From assembly GCA_963815195.1 (NCBI GenBank), contig CAWFGE010000006.1:1-64000 (forward strand): DNA of 64,000 nucleotides. The letters are read 5' to 3'. Under the pieces are notes generated by a model, which was given only the letters and a program-made list of their open reading frames with translations, did not search any database and was not told the DNA's origin. Shown here piece after piece: positions 2,354 to 53,524 of the stretch; the stretch's first letter is position 1; each line of letters begins with the position of its first letter. Position numbers and translations under genes: made by a program. Origin of the DNA: an uncultured Planctomycetaceae bacterium. Lineage in GTDB: Bacteria > Planctomycetota > Planctomycetia > Planctomycetales > Planctomycetaceae.

Positions 2354-3727
2354 TGTGGTGGACCCCGAAAACTGGACAGCCCAATAAGGTAGAATTTGCG
2401 ATGTTCATTTGTCGCATTGGGAGGTTCCGATTATGACCAGGAAGCGTCGAGTTTTGGGGTCCGCGTTCAAAGCCAAGGTGGCGTTGGCGGCGGTCAAAGG
2501 GGATAGGACGACGGCTCAGTTGGCGTCGGAATTTGGCGTCCACACGAGCCAAGTCACGGCTTGGAAAAAGCAGTTGTTGTCGGGAGCCACTGAGTTGTTC
2601 ACGGATGGCCGACGTAAGCGATCCGACGATCAATCGGCCAATGAGCAAGAACTCTATGAACAAATCGGCCGGCTGAAAATGGAAGTCGAGTGGCTCAAAA
2701 AAAAGTCGCTGACGCTGGATTAAGCCACGAGGTTTTGCGGGCATGGATCGAACCGAAGCATTCCACGTTGAGCGTGTCGCGTCAGTGCGATCTGTTGGGA
2801 TTGGCGCGGAGCAGTTGGTACTACGAACCTGGCGGCGAGACCGCGGAAAATTTGGAACTGATGCGGCGAATCGACGAGGAATACACGCGGCATCCGTTTT
2901 ATGGTTCTCGCAAGATGGCCGAGTTGTTCGGCGTGAATCGCAAGCGAGTGCAGCGGCTGATGCGGCAGATGGGAATCGAAGCGGTTGGACCGAAACGCCG
3001 CACGACCAAACCGGGGCGCGGACACAAGATTTACCCTTATTTACTGCGGAATGTGGAGGTTCTCCGGCCCAACCAGGTGTGGTCAAGCGACATCACTTAC
3101 ATCCCGCTTCGCCACGGGTTTTTGTATCTCGTGGCAGTGATGGACTGGTTCAGTCGCTACGTGTTGAGTTGGCGATTGTCGAACACGTTGGAGGGGAGTT
3201 TTTGCTTGGAGGCGTTGGACGAAGCCTTGTCGATCTCGCGGCCGGAGGTCTTCAACAGCGACCAGGGCAGCCAATTCACGGCGATCAAGTTCACCGAGCG
3301 ATTGGAACGATTGAATGTCGCGATCAGTATGGATGGAAAAGGACGGTGCTTGGACAACGTATTCATCGAGCGGCTGTGGCGGAGCGTGAAATACGAAGAG
3401 GTTTACTTGAAGGATTACACGGATGGTTGGGAGGCCGAGAGAAGCCTGCAGAGTTACTTTGAGTTCTATTGTGAGGAACGGATTCATCAGTCGCTGGGTT
3501 ATCAAACGCCGGCGATGATCTACGAAGGAAAAGATTGAAGCCTGCACAAAGTGATGGACGAAAAATGAAAACAAGTTTCGCGCAAAACCGGGAGGGAACT
3601 GGTGAGGTCTCGTCCCGGGCCCCTTGTCATCGGCGGCAGACGACGAGGCCTATGAGGGGCCTCGTCTGCCGCTGACTCACACCACTAAACAACCCCGTTT
3701 GCTGTCCAAAGAATGGGGTCCACCTCA
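2354..3727 (+). mobile_element. IS3-family insertion sequence, copy 2 (intact, 1374 bp)
   Basis: TG...CA ends with imperfect IRs TGTGGTGGACCCCGAAAACTGGACAGC / GCTGTCCAAAGAATGGGGTCCACCTCA. Confidence 0.95.
2433..3538 (+). CDS. IS3 transposase OrfAB, joined by a -1 programmed frameshift at AAAAAAAAG (2697-2705)
   Basis: OrfA 2433-2723 overlaps OrfB 2690-3538, which carries a DDE integrase core. Confidence 0.93.
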
Positions 3728-6626: not shown

Positions 6627-7007
6627 TCAATCTTGGGCCGATGAGGGCGTCCGGGCCTCGGCGCAAAGGCGGATCTCGCCGTCCTTGCGGTACAGCTCGT
6701 ACTCGCCGATGACCCGGTCATCATCGCCAAAAAGCGTTCGCTTACGATCGATCAGCGCCTCGACGATGCCTCGTAATTGCACGTCGCCTGCGATCGATGA
6801 TCGCAGCAGATTCAGTGAATTGTCCGTCTTGCCGACGTCAGTGAACACGACCGCGTTCCACACCGTCCAGGCAATCATCAGCGGTGGCCCCATTTGATCC
6901 TCAAGAGCATCCGGCCCGAGCGCGTCGAGCAATGGCTCCGCGAACTCGAAAAACGTGACTGAAATTTTGCGGTCTGGAAAATTTAATTTTGACTTCCTCG
7001 TGGCCAT
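6627..7007 (-). CDS. Hypothetical protein
   Basis: Protein-like ORF (KISVTFFEFAEPLL...IAWTVWNAVV), co-oriented with its neighbours. Confidence 0.6.
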   Translation of the reverse strand: MATRKSKLNFPDRKISVTFFEFAEPLLDALGPDALEDQMGPPLMIAWTVWNAVVFTDVGKTDNSLNLLRSSIAGDVQLRGIVEALIDRKRTLFGDDDRVIGEYELYRKDGEIRLCAEARTPSSAQD

Positions 7008-7008
7008 G

Positions 7009-7110
7009 TCACCACCGATTTCTCTGGGCAAGATCCTGGTCCTCGGCGGGCGGTGCGGGCACCAGAGATTTGAATATCACGATCAACTCAGGCGTATCCG
7101 TGTCCATCAT
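7009..7110 (-). pseudogene. 33-aa remnant resembling the C-terminus of a HEPN/DUF86 toxin
   Basis: MMDTDTPELIVIFKSLVPAPP... starts with an ATGA overlap on the restored MNT stop codon. Confidence 0.4.
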
Positions 7111-7432
7111 TCTTGTTTGTCGTAAATTACCTGTCTGGTTTCAACGATCCGCCCCCGTCGAAACGGTTCCGCAGACCCTCCTTCTCGACGAGATCCACCG
7201 GGCGGCCAACCAATTCAGCCAGTTCATCCTGCATCGCGATCAGATCCCAAAGGCTCCAGGGAGCATCTTCGTCGAACGAGACCAGCACGTCCACATCGCT
7301 ATCGGGACCGAAGTCGTCTCGCAGTACCGAGCCAAAGAGTGACAACTCGCGCACCTTCCACCTTTGGCAGAACGCCTCCAGGACGTCCGGTGGGATCGTG
7401 ATTTTGGGAAGGGCCGTCATGCGATTTGGCAT
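7107..7432 (-). CDS. Minimal nucleotidyltransferase (MntA-type antitoxin) with a 1-nt deletion near 7165
   Basis: LSLFGSVLRDDFGPDSDVDVLV...GRPVDLV. Adding one C restores the typical tail LRNPFRRGRIVETRQVIY. Confidence 0.85.
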
Positions 7433-7460
7433 CCGCCATTGTGGAAGAATTCACACTCCT

Positions 7461-7510
7461 GTTGACCACGTTCCCAAAGGTTCGCACCGGGTTGTCTACG
7501 GGGTCCATAC
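7461..7510. repeat. Partial third copy of the island repeat element
   Basis: CGGGTTGTCTACGGGGTCCATAC (7488-7510) is identical to 9177-9199. Confidence 0.8.
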
Positions 7511-7555
7511 CGAGCAATCAAGGGAAAACGGCGTTAAGTGGCACCCGTCAGTTTA

Positions 7556-8911
7556 TCACTCGGTTGCCCGAGTCATTGGCCAGACCCCTTGCAACCATAT
7601 CAGAGTGGGAGCTTCGTCCTCGGGGCGGGCGGCGAGGTGAAAGGTGTGCCGTTGCCTCTCGCCCGCATCGTCGGGCTCGGCCCGCATCACATGCCCCAGC
7701 AATTCGGCCGGAACTTTGCTTTTTAGTTCTGGAAGATCGTGCTCATTCAGCCGCGAGAGGAATCCGAAGATTGAAACGTCGTTGACGCCTTGGTTGTCAG
7801 TTCGTGTGACGACAAGGTGGCCATTCCAGATGCCGTTCTCGCGTACTTCCTCGACTTGCAGCTTGACCGTTGCCGAGAGCGCAGCTCCGCGAATTGTCGT
7901 CACGTACGTCTTGCCCGGCGCCATCAGCTCCACCAGTCGTGCTTTCTGACGTCCGGCGAGAGCATCGGATTCGGCGGTCATTTTTTCGACGGCGGCAAAG
8001 AACTCGGTGTAGGGGCGGCTCCACTCATTGGCCGACGCCTGGTAGTTTCCGGGATCGACGACGAGCAAGCCCGGCGGCGCGTACTCCGGCGAGACGATCT
8101 GCCGGCTGATCGACGACTTCGGGCGAAGTTGGGTGACTTCGTGAACCCACTTCGAGTCGACCAGGCGGGACTGAATCTTGCCTGTCGCCGTCCACCGCGA
8201 GCCGGTGGCGTGCTCTTTCTCGAGTACCCAGGCTCGCGACGCCAGAAGCTGCTTCCACTGCTGGTCAAGCTTGGATCGTTTCGGCTCGGCAATCTTTTTC
8301 GCGGCAGTCGTCGCACTCGACACGCGTTTGGTGTCCCACTGGATGGCCTTCTGGAGTTCGCTGCTGGTGGCCAGCTTGTACAAATCGGTCAACAATTCCT
8401 GTTCGACCTCGAACGAGATCTCGTGGTGCGTCTCGGTCCTGGGCTTGCGATGGGTGATCCGAACATCGACCAGGCGCGCCTTGATGATTTGTTCGTCCCG
8501 TTCCTTCGCGATCTGCGGCTTTTCGGTTGTTAAGGAGAATTGCCGCGAACCTTGAGTCAATTGCGCCTCGTACCGTGCCGCCGGGTCGTTGCCTGGCGGC
8601 GGTCCTCCCGGTCCAAATCCGGGCGGGCTGCCGAAGGGTCCGGGCGGCATTCCCCCCGGTGGCCCGAAGTTCGGCGGCATGCCCATCCCGGCTCGCGCGG
8701 GATCGGAGGAATGGAGGGATGATGTGACCAGCCGGTCTTGCACGTGATCGCGCACGGCTACGCCGATGTCGTTGTCAGACGGAGCGGATTCGACCGCGGT
8801 ATTTCCGGTGGTCGCTGCGTCGGCCGGAGCAGGGGCGTCCCCTTCTCCGCAGCCGGACAGAACAAAGCCGACACAGACCAACAACGCGGCACACACAAGT
8901 CGTTCTCGCAT
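7556..8911 (-). CDS. Hypothetical lipoprotein with a Pro/Gly-rich linker
   Basis: Signal peptide with lipobox LSGC, followed by PPNFGPPGGMPPGPFG repeats. Confidence 0.7.
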   Translation of the reverse strand: MRERLVCAALLVCVGFVLSGCGEGDAPAPADAATTGNTAVESAPSDNDIGVAVRDHVQDRLVTSSLHSSDPARAGMGMPPNFGPPGGMPPGPFGSPPGFGPGGPPPGNDPAARYEAQLTQGSRQFSLTTEKPQIAKERDEQIIKARLVDVRITHRKPRTETHHEISFEVEQELLTDLYKLATSSELQKAIQWDTKRVSSATTAAKKIAEPKRSKLDQQWKQLLASRAWVLEKEHATGSRWTATGKIQSRLVDSKWVHEVTQLRPKSSISRQIVSPEYAPPGLLVVDPGNYQASANEWSRPYTEFFAAVEKMTAESDALAGRQKARLVELMAPGKTYVTTIRGAALSATVKLQVEEVRENGIWNGHLVVTRTDNQGVNDVSIFGFLSRLNEHDLPELKSKVPAELLGHVMRAEPDDAGERQRHTFHLAARPEDEAPTLIWLQGVWPMTRATE

Positions 8912-9153
8912 TCAAACTGCTCCAGGCTGGCAAGGGAATGGTTGTGAGGCGTCGGGGACCAATGTAGTCGAATGTTCCAGCCGCTTCAACAATCCGCGGC
9001 GGCTGGCGGCTGGCGAAATGGACGAATGGGATCGACTGAGGATTGCCCGCCAGCGAGTCACCGTTTGGGCACTTTTTCAACGGTCCCTTTCGAATGCAGC
9101 ATAATCTTGTCGCATCACGGCGCTCTCCAGCGTCAAAAAAACGTCCCACCTGC

Positions 9154-9458
9154 TAACCAAACTCCAAAGTTCGCAGCGGGTTGTCTACGGGGTCCATACG
9201 CAACTGTGGCGTTAACCAAAATCCCGGCCAAACCAGAGAGCGCGAGAGTTTTGGCGAGATTTGACAGTTGTCAAAGGGCACCCATAGATTCGTTTCGAAC
9301 CAGAGAGTTTCTGGCTCTGTGGCCAATTTACGCCCCTCGACGCAAATCCTTTGGTGGCTTAGAGATTTGCGCTATCGCACAAAAAACGCCGGTCGCTCTC
9401 GCGCCGGCGTTTTGCGTAAACCAGTGGGTAACGGAAGTTCGCTACTGAATATAAGGCT
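9154..9458. repeat. ~305-bp direct repeat, copy A (att-arm-like)
   Basis: Colinear and highly similar to 12565-12870. Contains palindrome TTTGACAGTTGTCAAA, dyad CGCAAATC-N15-GATTTGCG and a terminator-like hairpin. Confidence 0.92.
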
Positions 9459-9591
9459 AAATATCGCCCTGGCTGACCTTAAACCGACTGGCTAACAGTT
9501 ACGCGTTGCAACCTGTTGCTTTACAATGACTTAAGAATTCATGATTTGCGTGATTTGGGCGAACTTGCTGTAAAAAACTGCGGCAACAGGA

Positions 9592-9888
9592 CTACTCCAA
9601 CAGGCCCAAGACCTTGAGATATTTCCCATAGAGATAGCCGATCAAGGCGTCCCAGGATCTGAAATCTTCGGGCACTTGCCCGTATTCCTTGGGCAGGTCG
9701 GTGAGGACCGTCGTTGTGGCTTCCTCGATTCGAGCCATTTCCGTTCCGGTGTTCTTGTGGACTTGCTCGATAATCTTGTCAAAGATCTCCTCGAACTCGG
9801 CTTTGCCGACATGGTCGAGTTTTTCGACCTTCTTCTTCACCCGCCGGATGACTTTCTCGGTCTCGCGGAGTTGCTTACGATTGCTCAT
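9592..9888 (-). CDS. Hypothetical protein (98 aa)
   Basis: Charged helical ORF MSNRKQLRETEK... downstream of the recombinase. Confidence 0.6.
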   Translation of the reverse strand: MSNRKQLRETEKVIRRVKKKVEKLDHVGKAEFEEIFDKIIEQVHKNTGTEMARIEEATTTVLTDLPKEYGQVPEDFRSWDALIGYLYGKYLKVLGLLE

Positions 9889-9929
9889 GCGATCTGGTCC
9901 ATGCGTTCTCGGGGCAAATGGGGCGTTTT

Positions 9930-11243
9930 TCAATTGTATGGGGGAGGTGAAGCCCTCAGATATTCGATGATGGCGTCGGGATCGAAGTGCACCGTCACGG
10001 TGGATTTCTTGGCATGGTAGATCACGTCCTGCACCAGGTTTGGCAGGAGCTTCGATCGGGGCCGATACATCAGCTTTGGCCAACCAACAAAGAATTCCCG
10101 GACGCCGTCGATGGACTTTTCGTTGTCCGACTCGTGGGCGTCCCATATTTCTGAATTTCGGATGGTTTCGATCACGAAATCCTCAATCTCCAGAGCCGGC
10201 AAAGAGACGCTCTGGCAGGGCGGTTTCCCGCCGGCCTCCGACCGGCAGCGGTAATAGCGGTAACGAACGTTCTTGTGTCCGGAGAAGCTCGGGCTCATCG
10301 GTCGCCCACACTGACCACACCGAAGGATGCCGCGCAGCGGCCAATGGATCGATGTGCTCCGGCCGCGGGAGTGTGTTCGGCGAGACGCGACGGCCTCTTG
10401 CACCTGATCGAAGAGCTCTTGATCCACGATTGGCTCATGAATGCCGGGACGGGTTCGATCTCCATCACGGATCAGCCCCACATACACCGGGTTGGAAAGC
10501 GTGGCGAGGATTTGGCGGGCGGTCCATTTGCCGTCGCCGGTGACTTGGCCGTTTCGAGACGTTCGTTGTTTCGTTCGCCAGCGGCGTTTGTTCGCAATCT
10601 CAGCAATCTCCGTCGGCAGCTTGCCCTCGGCGGCCCACTCGAACATCTTCCGGATGCGGTTGGCCTCCTGGCGAACGATGATCAATTGCTTGGTAATGGG
10701 ATCCGCTTCGTAGCCATAGGGCACCACGCCTGCCACGCGCCGGCCGCGGCGCTTGTGAGCGGCGCGAGCATCTGCCAGGCGTTCTCGGGTCATCTCCTGT
10801 TCGAACTCTGCAACCGAGGCGATGATGTTGAGGAAGAACGTGTCCCCCGCCGTGAGTCCCAAATCGGGCAGGGTGACGATTGTCAGGGCAACATCGTGGT
10901 CCCGCAATTCCTGAAGGAATTGGGTCCAATCGAAAAGCCGCCGCGAAAGCCGATCCAGGCGGTAGATCACGACGCGATCCATGCGGCCATCGCGAACGTC
11001 CTGTAAGAGCCGCTGAAGTTCCGGGCGATCAAGTGTTTCTGAGGACTCAGCCACATCATCATAGCGGCGGCCGTTCCAGCACCACCCATCGGGAAAATGG
11101 GAGCGAATAAACGCATCGCAAGTGTCGAACTGGGCATCGCGAGAACTGTACTCATCGTTGGTCGTTCGGGATTGCCGGGTGTAAATGGCGCACCAGCAAA
11201 TCGGCGGGAACTGGTCGATTTGCCGGTTATTGCCAGATGCCAT
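9930..11243 (-). CDS. Large serine recombinase (resolvase, recombinase and Zn-ribbon domains)
   Basis: AIYTRQS catalytic motif, DRPELQRLL, VIYRLDRLSR, AEFEQEMTRER, PYGY, HEPIVD and CGQCG...YYRC. Confidence 0.93.
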   Translation of the reverse strand: MASGNNRQIDQFPPICWCAIYTRQSRTTNDEYSSRDAQFDTCDAFIRSHFPDGWCWNGRRYDDVAESSETLDRPELQRLLQDVRDGRMDRVVIYRLDRLSRRLFDWTQFLQELRDHDVALTIVTLPDLGLTAGDTFFLNIIASVAEFEQEMTRERLADARAAHKRRGRRVAGVVPYGYEADPITKQLIIVRQEANRIRKMFEWAAEGKLPTEIAEIANKRRWRTKQRTSRNGQVTGDGKWTARQILATLSNPVYVGLIRDGDRTRPGIHEPIVDQELFDQVQEAVASRRTHSRGRSTSIHWPLRGILRCGQCGRPMSPSFSGHKNVRYRYYRCRSEAGGKPPCQSVSLPALEIEDFVIETIRNSEIWDAHESDNEKSIDGVREFFVGWPKLMYRPRSKLLPNLVQDVIYHAKKSTVTVHFDPDAIIEYLRASPPPYN

Positions 11244-11256
11244 GTCGGATTCCGCT

Positions 11257-11570
11257 TCACTTGGCCCCGCAACACTTTTTGTATTTCTTCCCGCTGCCGC
11301 AAGCGCAGGGATCATTTCGTCCGACCTTAGGAGTGGTGTTGCGGATTGTTAGCGACGCTTCCCACGGGCCTTCACTCACGGGTTCAGCACGCCACTCCTC
11401 ATCCTCGGCCATCATCTCGGCCCCCGAGGAGATACCAGCCTCTCGGCCGCGATTTCCCTCCTGGTCGTCTGGAATCCATTGAGATCTCGGTGATTGCTCC
11501 GCTTTGAGGGTGGCGATCTGCTCGCGCAGGCGGGCGGCTTCTTCGCCTCGGCCTGTCTCGTCATACAGAG
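11257..11570 (-). pseudogene. C-terminal fragment of a SEC-C motif protein
   Basis: Manual translation gives [18 protein letters not shown]...[24 protein letters not shown], with no intact 5' part. Confidence 0.7.
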
Positions 11571-11756
11571 AATACGCCCGTCAGCCAGCGTGCATTTCCC
11601 ATTGCGTTTGATAAGCCGACGGGTTTCCTCATCCTCGGCGGCCCGCTTCTCCAGCATGCGATTCATCGCAATATACGAAATAAACATCTCGATTTCCCTG
11701 CCAGATGATCTGCAACCTGAATCCTGGTTGGACGATGGACGAATTGAGACAGCCTA

Positions 11757-12329
11757 TTATGTCGTCTTGGGCCGCAGTTTTCCCGTGATCAGGTCATCAA
11801 GTTCCTGAGTCACTCGAAGCTTCTCCGCCCAGCACTTGAGATATTCCAAATCGAGAGCCTCGGCCTGCACCGTGAACACTCCGGCTGCATCATAGAGTTG
11901 GCGTTCCGAGGGGGTGAGCCGGTTCCAATACAGCTTATGAAGCAGCACGTCCTCGGCCGTGGCGATCCAAGCGGGCGTGCCGAAAAGCTCGACCGCGAGT
12001 CGCCGACGAAACATCTCTTGTTCGAACTCCGTCTCACGCAATTGCCAGAAGTCGGCCTTGAGGGCCGATTGTTCGTCGATGACGTTGAACTGATAGGGCG
12101 GCCGAAATACCGAACGCACGGACTGGGGCTGAATAAAGAAGCCTTGTTTGAACCTGGCTACGAATGGATCGACCTGATCCGGCTTCAGGAGAATGACGAA
12201 ATCGAGGTCATGCGTCGTCCTGGGAATTCCCCAGAAGTTGCTGGCCATCGAGCCCGTGAGCATGTAATCCACACCGATGAGATTGAGTTGATGGAGGACA
12301 TCAACCAGGAACTCAATTTCGCTTCTCAT
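11757..12329 (-). CDS. Nucleotidyltransferase-fold toxin (MenT/AbiEii-like)
   Basis: YMLTGSMASNFWGIPRTTHDLDFV NTase motif and EDVLLHKL..R..DA. ATGA-coupled to a small upstream gene. Confidence 0.75.
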   Translation of the reverse strand: MRSEIEFLVDVLHQLNLIGVDYMLTGSMASNFWGIPRTTHDLDFVILLKPDQVDPFVARFKQGFFIQPQSVRSVFRPPYQFNVIDEQSALKADFWQLRETEFEQEMFRRRLAVELFGTPAWIATAEDVLLHKLYWNRLTPSERQLYDAAGVFTVQAEALDLEYLKCWAEKLRVTQELDDLITGKLRPKTT

Positions 12330-12526
12330 CGCTGTCCCAATTCAATCCGTCGGCGCAAATGCTGTTCGACTTCTTCATCCGTGGCGTTCGGGTACTGGCG
12401 TCGGATCCCCGCCCGCGCGACCTCGCAGGCAAACGTATGCAAATCGAGTGCAAGTTTAAGCCGCTGCTCGCCCGTCATCCTACGGTAGATTTCGATTTGC
12501 TTGGCGAGGGCGTCATCGGGGTTCAT
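12326..12526 (-). CDS. Small helical antitoxin-like protein (MenA1/Rv0078B-like)
   Basis: 66 aa, RRMTGEQRLKLALDL...GIRRQYPNATDEEVE, overlapping the NTase start. Confidence 0.65.
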   Translation of the reverse strand: MNPDDALAKQIEIYRRMTGEQRLKLALDLHTFACEVARAGIRRQYPNATDEEVEQHLRRRIELGQR

Positions 12527-12564
12527 TTCGAACTGCGTGCCGCGTTAGAAAGTGGCGATTGCGT

Positions 12565-12870
12565 TAACCAAGCTCCGGAGTTCGTAGCGGGTTACCTACG
12601 GGGTCCATACGCAACTGTGGCGTTAACCAAAATCCCGGCCAAACCAGAGAGCGCGAGAGTTTTGGCGAGATTTGACAGTTGTCAAAGGGCGCCCATAGAT
12701 TCGTTTCGAACCAGAGAGTTTTCGATTCCGTGGCGAATTTACACCGGTCGTCGCAAATCCTTTGGTGGCTTAGAGATTTGCGTCGCGCAGCAAAAAAACG
12801 CCGGTCGCTCTCGCGCCGGCGATTTCCGTAAACCAGGGGGTAACGGAAGTTCGCTACTGAATATAAGGCT
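12565..12870. repeat. ~305-bp direct repeat, copy B, abutting the tRNA 3' end
   Basis: Matches 9154-9458 and includes the post-tRNA hairpin plus T-run on the minus strand. Confidence 0.92.
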
Positions 12871-12941
12871 CCCCGACAAGGACTCGAACCTTGAACCTAG
12901 CGGTTAACAGCCGCTCGCTCTACCGATTGAGCTATCGGGGA
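12869..12941 (-). tRNA. tRNA-Asn (GTT), CCA not fully encoded
   Basis: TCCCCGATAGCTCAATCGGTAGAGCGAGCGGCTGTTAACCGCTAGGTTCAAGGTTCGAGTCCTTGTCGGGGAG folds as a cloverleaf with anticodon GTT. Confidence 0.97.
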
Positions 12942-22285: not shown

Positions 22286-22454
22286 GTGTGTCTCACGAAA
22301 GTAGGTGGAAAATGACTGGACGTATTTTTCAAGTGGATCTAGGTGGCACGCCCTGAGGCACGAAGGGCGTGGTCTTTGCAATGGCCACGTCCTTCGCTGA
22401 GGCTCAGGGACGTGCCACCCAAATTTGCCCATGACCTGCTTTCGTGATACGCAC
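22286..22454. repeat. REP/MITE-like palindromic element, copy 1
   Basis: Core GGTGGCACGCCCTGAG..CGAAGGGCGTGG...CCACGTCCTTCG..CTCAGGGACGTGCCACC inside a 20-bp imperfect outer IR. Confidence 0.8.
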
Positions 22455-37187: not shown

Positions 37188-37283
37188 TGTTTCACAGAAA
37201 CAGGTACGAATTTGGGTGGCACGCCCTGAGGAACGAAGGGCGTGGTCCGGGCGATCGCCGCGCCCTTCGCTGCGCTGTGCCAC
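37188..37283. repeat. REP/MITE-like element, copy 2
   Basis: TGTTTCACAGAA..GGTACGAA.TTGGGTGGCACGCCCTGAGGAACGAAGGGCGTGGTC shared with 51968-52072. Confidence 0.8.

Positions 37284-51747: not shown

Positions 51748-53524
<1,777 letters not shown>

Follow-up and report, generated by a model that had tools for sequence, protein, structure and literature searches.

A probable tandem composite island, built with large serine recombinases, at the 3' end of a planctomycete tRNA-Asn gene

The first 64,000 nucleotides of contig CAWFGE010000006.1 (assembly GCA_963815195.1, from an uncultured Planctomycetaceae bacterium), here called the window, contain a tRNA-Asn(GTT) gene (12869..12941, minus strand) whose 3' end is directly adjoined by a repeated element of about 305 bp. 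Further from the tRNA, and all on the minus strand, lie a MenA-like antitoxin gene of the Rv0078B family (12326..12526; PF18993, E 5e-10), a gene for a MenT-like nucleotidyltransferase (11757..12329; DUF6036/AbiEii-like), a large serine recombinase (LSR) gene (9930..11243), orf98 (9592..9888), a second copy of the element, a putative lipoprotein gene (7556..8911), a partial third copy, and an MntA-like (MNT) antitoxin gene with a HepT remnant (7036..7432). The original prediction, made from the sequence alone, took this region for a row of unrelated cargo blocks, each joined to an att-like element, and proposed either site-specific cargo exchange or repeated tandem integration of related mini-islands, which would make it an integron-like capture platform. 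We argue here that LSRs have assembled a tandem composite island at the 3' end of tRNA-Asn, a reading to which we assign a probability of about 0.7.

The element occurs in two copies and a partial third, as had been claimed. A pairwise alignment of copy B (12565-12870) with copy A (9154-9458) spans 307 nt at 91.5% identity (E 1e-120); copy C is 94.6% identical to A over 37 nt (7474-7510) and, with its motif tail, covers 7459-7510. The direct repeats, the TTTGACA..TGTCAAA palindrome and the dyad described earlier are all present in the sequence, the palindrome being confined to A and B and absent from 14 homologous elements. The element is the tRNA-side end, hereafter the arm, of mobile islands that sit at the 3' end of tRNA-Asn. 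Arm B (12561..12868, minus strand) carries an outer half-site, an inner inverted half-site (12605-12580) with a GTTAAC tail, a terminator-like hairpin (approximately 12792-12821), a dyad (approximately 12753-12781) and GAGAG repeats. Arm A (9150..9456, minus strand) is the tRNA-side end of the next unit, with its inner inverted half-site at 9194-9169. A structured non-coding RNA was considered and rejected, with pairing limited to the terminator hairpin and one dyad, no Rfam family and no overall fold. The hairpin itself rests on folding, as a terminator scan did not list it, and the two TTGACA-type matches of a promoter scan equaled the shuffle mean.

The original prediction had proposed a search for the element in this genome and its relatives. 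Homologues were found on contigs C7, C13 and C14 of the same genome (G000), and a sequence model built from 16 copies matched 79 of 150 genomes of the family and 54 of 150 of the class, the genome of the window being counted. A complete tRNA-Asn adjoins the arm in 16 of the 30 best loci. No synteny was detected among genomes G000-G003 of the genus. In G002, a group II intron encoding a reverse transcriptase is inserted just past the arm's terminator hairpin (L027:4411-6340).

Where is the fixed joint? When 93 distinct arm ends were anchored on a GTNAAC motif, i.e., independently of the dinucleotide CT, CT was found exactly 41 nt past the anchor in 74 and within 3 nt of that position in 92. Past CT, the sequence continues as tRNA-Asn in 43, as a conserved (type-1) far end in 30 and as other ends in 19, 7 of which we read as type-2 far ends. 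The fixed joint is therefore at the tRNA-facing end of each copy, with CT at 9457 and at 12869 (12869-12870 on the plus strand, the target at the tRNA 3' end). The joints share this short core, in keeping with an LSR, and the att-like character originally ascribed to the element is supported.

The motifs flanking the joint show a characteristic geometry. The T-loop and anticodon loop of the tRNA-Asn form the motif CGAAC-N12-GGTTAACAG, and CGAA starts at +16 in 42 of 43 tRNA sides but at +21 or +22 in 25 of 30 type-1 far ends, so that the far-end motif lies 5 bp further out. This displacement matches that between attP and attB of serine integrases, for which PMC3783163 describes a 25-bp attP half-site and a distal motif shifted 5 bp inward in attB. 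The shift is not seen on the arm side, where 66 of 92 ends have a distance of 15 nt between motif and joint. A second arm family, of different sequence, occurs at tRNA-Met in the same genome and has the same +5 shift at three of three joints. This tRNA-Met family (G000 C8:438984, C8:110369, C17:385604 and C8:453600) has its own far end and a distinct LSR clade.

The segment 9457-12868 is one unit of 3412 bp, made up of a far end, orf98, the resident recombinase, the MenAT-like pair and arm B, because the 44 nt to the right of copy A match the consensus of type-2 ends and because the gene order recurs at locus L316. The type-2 far end (9457..9500, plus strand) is joined to arm A at CT, agrees with 26 of 35 consensus positions of 13 type-2 ends, and holds GGCTAACAG in register with the tRNA anticodon loop; it replaced a description of 9457-9500 as a degenerate tRNA half. 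The order at L316 is that of the window gene for gene: tRNA-Asn, arm, MenA-like, MenT-like, LSR, orf98, type-2 end and second arm. An LSR, a type-2 end and a second arm are also present at L348, L356, L360, L364 and L382 and in G160. Arms in tandem and in the same orientation are recurrent, with up to five in G204, 43-50 kb apart. The tandem arms and the recurring unit layout support repeated integration of related islands, one of the two processes originally proposed, and the proposed link between the resident recombinase and the element gains support from the recurrence in relatives of the layout tRNA, arm, toxin-antitoxin (TA) genes, recombinase, far end, arm. Between the recombinase and the MenT-like gene lie deletion remnants of SEC-C-type accessory genes (11264..11750, minus strand), longer versions of which are found on contig C14 and in G094. 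The product of orf98 is helical and of no known family; the gene lies 3' of the recombinase in two other loci, was found in one of 301 genomes of the phylum (that of the window), and had no Atlas match above 0.9.

The resident LSR (437 residues) retains the resolvase, recombinase and zinc-ribbon domains and the catalytic serine of its class; the coiled coil that canonical unidirectional integrases carry within the zinc-ribbon domain is absent. More than 100 similarly short LSRs were listed, mostly of 410-460 residues, and 60 were aligned, with Y21, R23, S25 and four cysteines invariant across the 60 rows. The distance from the zinc ribbon to the C-terminal WxxL has a median of 45 residues in the 50 of these 60 rows where it is measurable, versus 122-136 in 23 of 24 LSRs linked to DUF2924. 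About 79 residues are thus missing relative to the latter, at the position of the coiled coil, and the predicted structure contains no long coiled coil or long helix pair. As reported in PMC3783163, deletion of the 75-residue coiled coil from LI integrase leaves binding intact, permits excision with all four site pairs and abolishes integration in trans. By analogy with that mutant, the resident LSR may be a relaxed excisionase, and integration would need the long arms or a full-length LSR. A tRNA-Asn, an arm or a type-2 far end is present at 21 of 37 short-LSR loci, and at 11 of 13 in the planctomycete-titled subset, one of these at tRNA-Met. Short LSRs of Acidobacteria lie beside tRNA-Gln(TTG) at L344, L345 and L350, with an arm-like sequence at L345, and are possibly the same system on another tRNA. 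We know of no described natural family of coiled-coil-less LSRs, no search having been aimed at one. Nor did the literature searched describe the present system; most subscription journals lay outside its coverage, and natural coiled-coil-less LSRs were not targeted.

The original prediction placed the recombination point at the other end of the element, at a T(A/G)ACCA position where all three copies lose similarity. The three copies do share this left limit in the window, but the start of several arms in relatives lies about 55 nt inward, and a conserved recombination point here is not supported: within the arm, the motif forms the tail of an inverted half-site. The sequence CGAAC-N10-14-GGTTAACAG, corresponding to the T-loop and anticodon loop of the tRNA on the opposite strand, has three matches in the window (tRNA, A and C) when up to one mismatch is allowed, the shuffle mean being 0.07; the two copies in B have two mismatches. 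When the window is scored with a matrix of 31 type-1 far ends, all from other genomes, the three best sites lie at 9194, 7505 and 12605 of the minus strand (23.7, 20.7 and 17.4; next best 13.9), which identifies the shared left limit, by sequence match, as an inverted copy of the far-end half-site plus its tail, at the inner edge of the arm. Considering that only 10 of 90 arm inner ends score at least 10 as half-sites (background 0.1%) and that the core letters vary, the inner half-site looks accessory rather than an obligatory crossover point, and inner half-sites are probably accessory binding sites. Two group II introns without open reading frames interrupt the inner half-site motif in G002 (L030:2616-3310, L027:3511-4200). 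GTTAGGC-like repeats on C7 and C14, examined as candidate integron sites, are part of the inverted far-end motif.

Copy C (7459..7510, minus strand) consists of an inverted half-site (7505-7480) and a GGTCAACAG tail, and could be either what is left of the inner portion of a third arm, now decayed, or a secondary site. The simplest explanation is the decayed arm, which is probable since an MNT gene directly adjoins an arm in G094 and G021 and at L347, L357 and L358. Cassette-type insertion or exchange of the lipoprotein block between A and C is possible on the sequence.

The cargo types named in the original prediction, a MenAT-like pair, a putative lipoprotein gene and an MNT antitoxin, are confirmed, but the cargo is not unrelated: MenAT, MNT and orf134 (6627..7031, minus strand), a recurring gene of these islands, adjoin arms in other genomes too, and the cargo is a recurring TA set. 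The arm-adjacent slot often holds nucleotidyltransferase TA pairs, whether MenAT-like, MntA-HepT or AbiEi/AbiEii (12326-12526 and 7127-7432 in the window, and relatives). The MenT-like protein has a weak AbiEii match and no solved-structure or PADLOC match. The lipoprotein (451 residues) has a lipobox-like LSGC and no family match. The MNT gene is frameshifted near 7160, and its HepT partner is mostly deleted. The segment 7274-8660, which includes part of the MNT gene, copy C and part of the lipoprotein gene, recurs at 99.8% identity on another contig (G000:C16:94924-96310), where it follows the companion gene of a DUF2924-linked LSR and is interrupted by an IS21-like element, with the same left junction in run X1, possibly the source sample.

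How could units accumulate at one tRNA? As to catalysis, direction and order of arrival, the following scheme would fit the observed anatomy, joints, spacing, gene associations and loss of the coiled coil. Each unit would run from a far end through its genes to the arm of about 300 bp, followed by CT and the target. Crossover in or next to CT would join the arm to the tRNA, as in copy B, or to the far end of a neighboring unit, as in copy A. Since the outer half-site of the arm has a spacing close to that of the tRNA half-site, i.e., attB-like, arm plus tRNA may stay a usable target, and units would stack. Between directly repeated sites, the resident LSR would be expected to excise without a directionality factor, so that the A and B joints, for instance, would yield a circle of 3412 bp. 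Without help from the long arms, or from a full-length DUF2924-linked LSR acting in trans, integration by the same enzyme would presumably be poor. LSRs of this latter kind are found with arms elsewhere: in G204, with its five tandem arms, each of four units contains one, and an arm lies within 55 kb on the same contig at 19 of 41 DUF2924 loci. Among 44 LSRs placed in a tree, those found at tRNA-Met fall within a clade of 8 (SH-aLRT, the Shimodaira-Hasegawa-like approximate likelihood ratio test, 98).

Several observations weigh against the tandem-island reading. The half-site spacing on the arm side is attB-like, while the textbook attP has the long spacing on both sides, and conservation of the type-2 ends peaks at +20 to +41, outside the 25-bp LSR footprint. 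None of the three marks is found at 16 of the 37 short-LSR loci, mostly outside planctomycetes. The resident type of LSR occurs at high score in 3 of 150 family genomes, compared with 79 for the arm, too rarely to serve most arms in cis. The 31 mostly arm-linked DUF2924-linked LSRs are weakly grouped (SH-aLRT 65), one member, in G074, lying toward tRNA-Arg, and a unit in G159 holds, from far end to arm, an rve gene and no LSR. The genomes are related by descent, so that counts of arms, joints and loci are not independent, and in assembled contigs neither recombination nor an excision circle was observed. Contigs from three sequencing runs contained no joint between the A and B positions, a result that carries no weight as evidence.

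Could the locus be an integron-like capture platform after all? This part of the original prediction fails the tests that define integrons: no IntI is encoded in the window, and an attC-like hairpin is lacking (z = +1.15 for copy C and +0.09 for the inner end of B, folded with RNA parameters). Elsewhere in the genome, an IntI-like integrase gene cut by the contig end (G000:C25:20753-21544) has no cassette array upstream or beside it, and IntI fragments lie on C18 and C21. A looser version would have the tRNA-proximal coiled-coil-less LSR use 9457-9500 as a landing site and swap promoter-less blocks there or at the inner half-site, the lipoprotein block between A and C being one cassette. We consider this version unlikely, although a short-LSR unit is tRNA-proximal in the window and at L316, L348, L356, L360 and L382, with a second arm on each far end, and the type-2 end imitates the tRNA spacing. 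The half-sites of A and C do form direct repeats around the lipoprotein block, MNT adjoining the arm in the relatives listed above, and the TA genes of the arm-adjacent slot differ (MenAT, MNT-HepT, AbiE). However, copy C has five extra bases in common with A past the core, and arm-like relics further right, as in a decayed arm; the scarcity of well-scoring inner ends and their variable core letters also speak against such swapping, and units elsewhere are 8-50 kb long with their own LSR, with other units inserted between arm and tRNA as well (L352). A further proposal, speculative and in our view unlikely, holds that natural coiled-coil-less LSRs act as resident shufflers at tRNA-Asn, reordering arm-ended blocks (TA modules, the lipoprotein, defence cargo) excised at their own far end and at the arms' inner half-sites, the repeated half-sites of the 300-bp arm replacing the coiled coil in synapsis and direction control. 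If true, this would be an integron-like system run by a serine enzyme in planctomycetes and their neighbors.

A transposon origin, in which an IS481-like rve protein of the DDE type, encoded 330-710 bp inside many far ends, would move the units and duplicate CTCCCC, is very improbable. Of 30 rve loci, 19 do have a type-1 far end upstream, the rve copies of complete genomes point the same way as the arms, the D-D-E residues are invariant in 25 rows with a fold like that of IstA, and both the arm and far-end motifs, symmetric around a 6-bp spacer, and the compact G159 unit would suit such an enzyme. Yet arm-bearing genomes G204, G254, G040, G222 and G060 lack an intact rve, the window has none, and related rve genes occur at tRNA-Arg islands having a tyrosine integrase and upstream of a tRNA-Met island. 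Immediately before the far-end body, 40 of 44 cases have the six bases CTCCCC/A; since these in no case agree with the type-2 targets, they appear to belong to the element and not to be a duplication. Moreover, rve has relics of its own insertion sequence (IS)-type ends, the arm end does not resemble the terminal inverted repeats of IS481 or IS3 elements, and the type-2 targets are not duplicated, as far as the few paired ends that can be checked indicate. Tyrosine-integrase islands served in trans, or plain local duplication, are the least credible of the readings considered: fixed joints in dozens of genomes are not obtainable by duplication alone, and among the loci examined no tyrosine integrase lies beside the inner end of an arm, the nearest being 1.6 kb away on the far-end side. 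The genome does have 36 PF00589 matches, G090 carries a tyrosine integrase at tRNA-Asn, and some arms run on into 44 bp of tRNA sequence, the 3' half as far as the anticodon loop, but displacement of the tRNA by other islands accounts for such halves.

The intact IS481-like rve genes (D-D-E retained) lie 280-710 bp within far ends, both in tRNA-Asn and in tRNA-Arg islands (L116-L145), and also upstream of a tRNA-Met island; in most copies the left IS end starts with GGT, not TGT, which suggests a domesticated insertion sequence. A lead comes from the IS1202/ISAba32 subgroup, described in 10.1101/2022.12.17.520857 as inserting beside xrs sites, which recalls rve near the far ends of several tRNA islands; unlike that subgroup, rve is a passenger absent from the window, and neither a fixed 5-bp distance nor a fresh duplication is seen. 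A 3' remnant (domains V-VI) of a group II intron, of the kind without open reading frames seen in G002, lies at 9039..9136 (minus strand). At the contig start (1-3722), two inverted IS3-family copies flank an istB fragment, and the array probably continues on another contig. On C14, about 135 kb (G000:C14:3110-137998) hold co-oriented far ends at 3110, 29433, 62991, 75823 and 80281, two arms, rve copies, a type III CRISPR-like block, an E2/E1/JAB set and a phage-like element with a DUF2924-linked LSR, and close with the 3' half of a displaced tRNA-Asn. The window also contains three copies (22315-22403, 37188-37276, 51968-52056) of a palindromic repeat of 89 nt that is probably REP-like.

The tandem island resembles the staphylococcal cassette chromosome (SCC, including SCCmec) and the Enterococcus cassette chromosome (ECC), which, according to PMC6222049, likewise use a serine recombinase, insert where a conserved gene ends (3'), and have variable cargo flanked by att sites that are repeated. 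Ccr enzymes are also noted, in PMC3783163, to accept non-standard site pairs. The locus works like these composite islands and is not a member: the target is tRNA-Asn rather than rlmH, the arm of about 300 bp has a terminator and repeated half-sites versus sites of about 50 bp, and the resident enzyme, without a coiled coil, falls far below the CcrA/B/C cut-offs (CcrB 108 bits versus 900). The integrases of phages A118 (LI), Bxb1 and SPbeta, described in PMC3783163, have the same domain order and fold, and their 25-bp half-site with a 5-bp motif shift is matched between far end and tRNA but not on the arm side; here, in contrast, the coiled coil is missing, the attP-type spacing is on one side of the joint, and a long accessory arm is present. 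Integrons share a row of variable blocks, each with a repeated site, and TA cargo, and group II introns target the repeated site in G002; unlike integrons, the locus has no IntI and no attC-like hairpin, and its units of 2.5-50 kb often encode their own recombinase. What appears to be new, judged on sequence, is a common 300-bp arm with repeated half-sites and a family of coiled-coil-less LSRs tied to it.

By the accepted view, serine integrases owe their direction and choice of site to the coiled coil, and a widespread natural family without it, tied to a defined target and to long accessory arms, makes alternative control of direction directly testable. Present in roughly half of the family genomes searched, the arm also marks a hotspot at which TA and defence cargo accumulates. 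For planctomycete genetics, arm and LSR together are candidates for a neutral landing site with its integrase.

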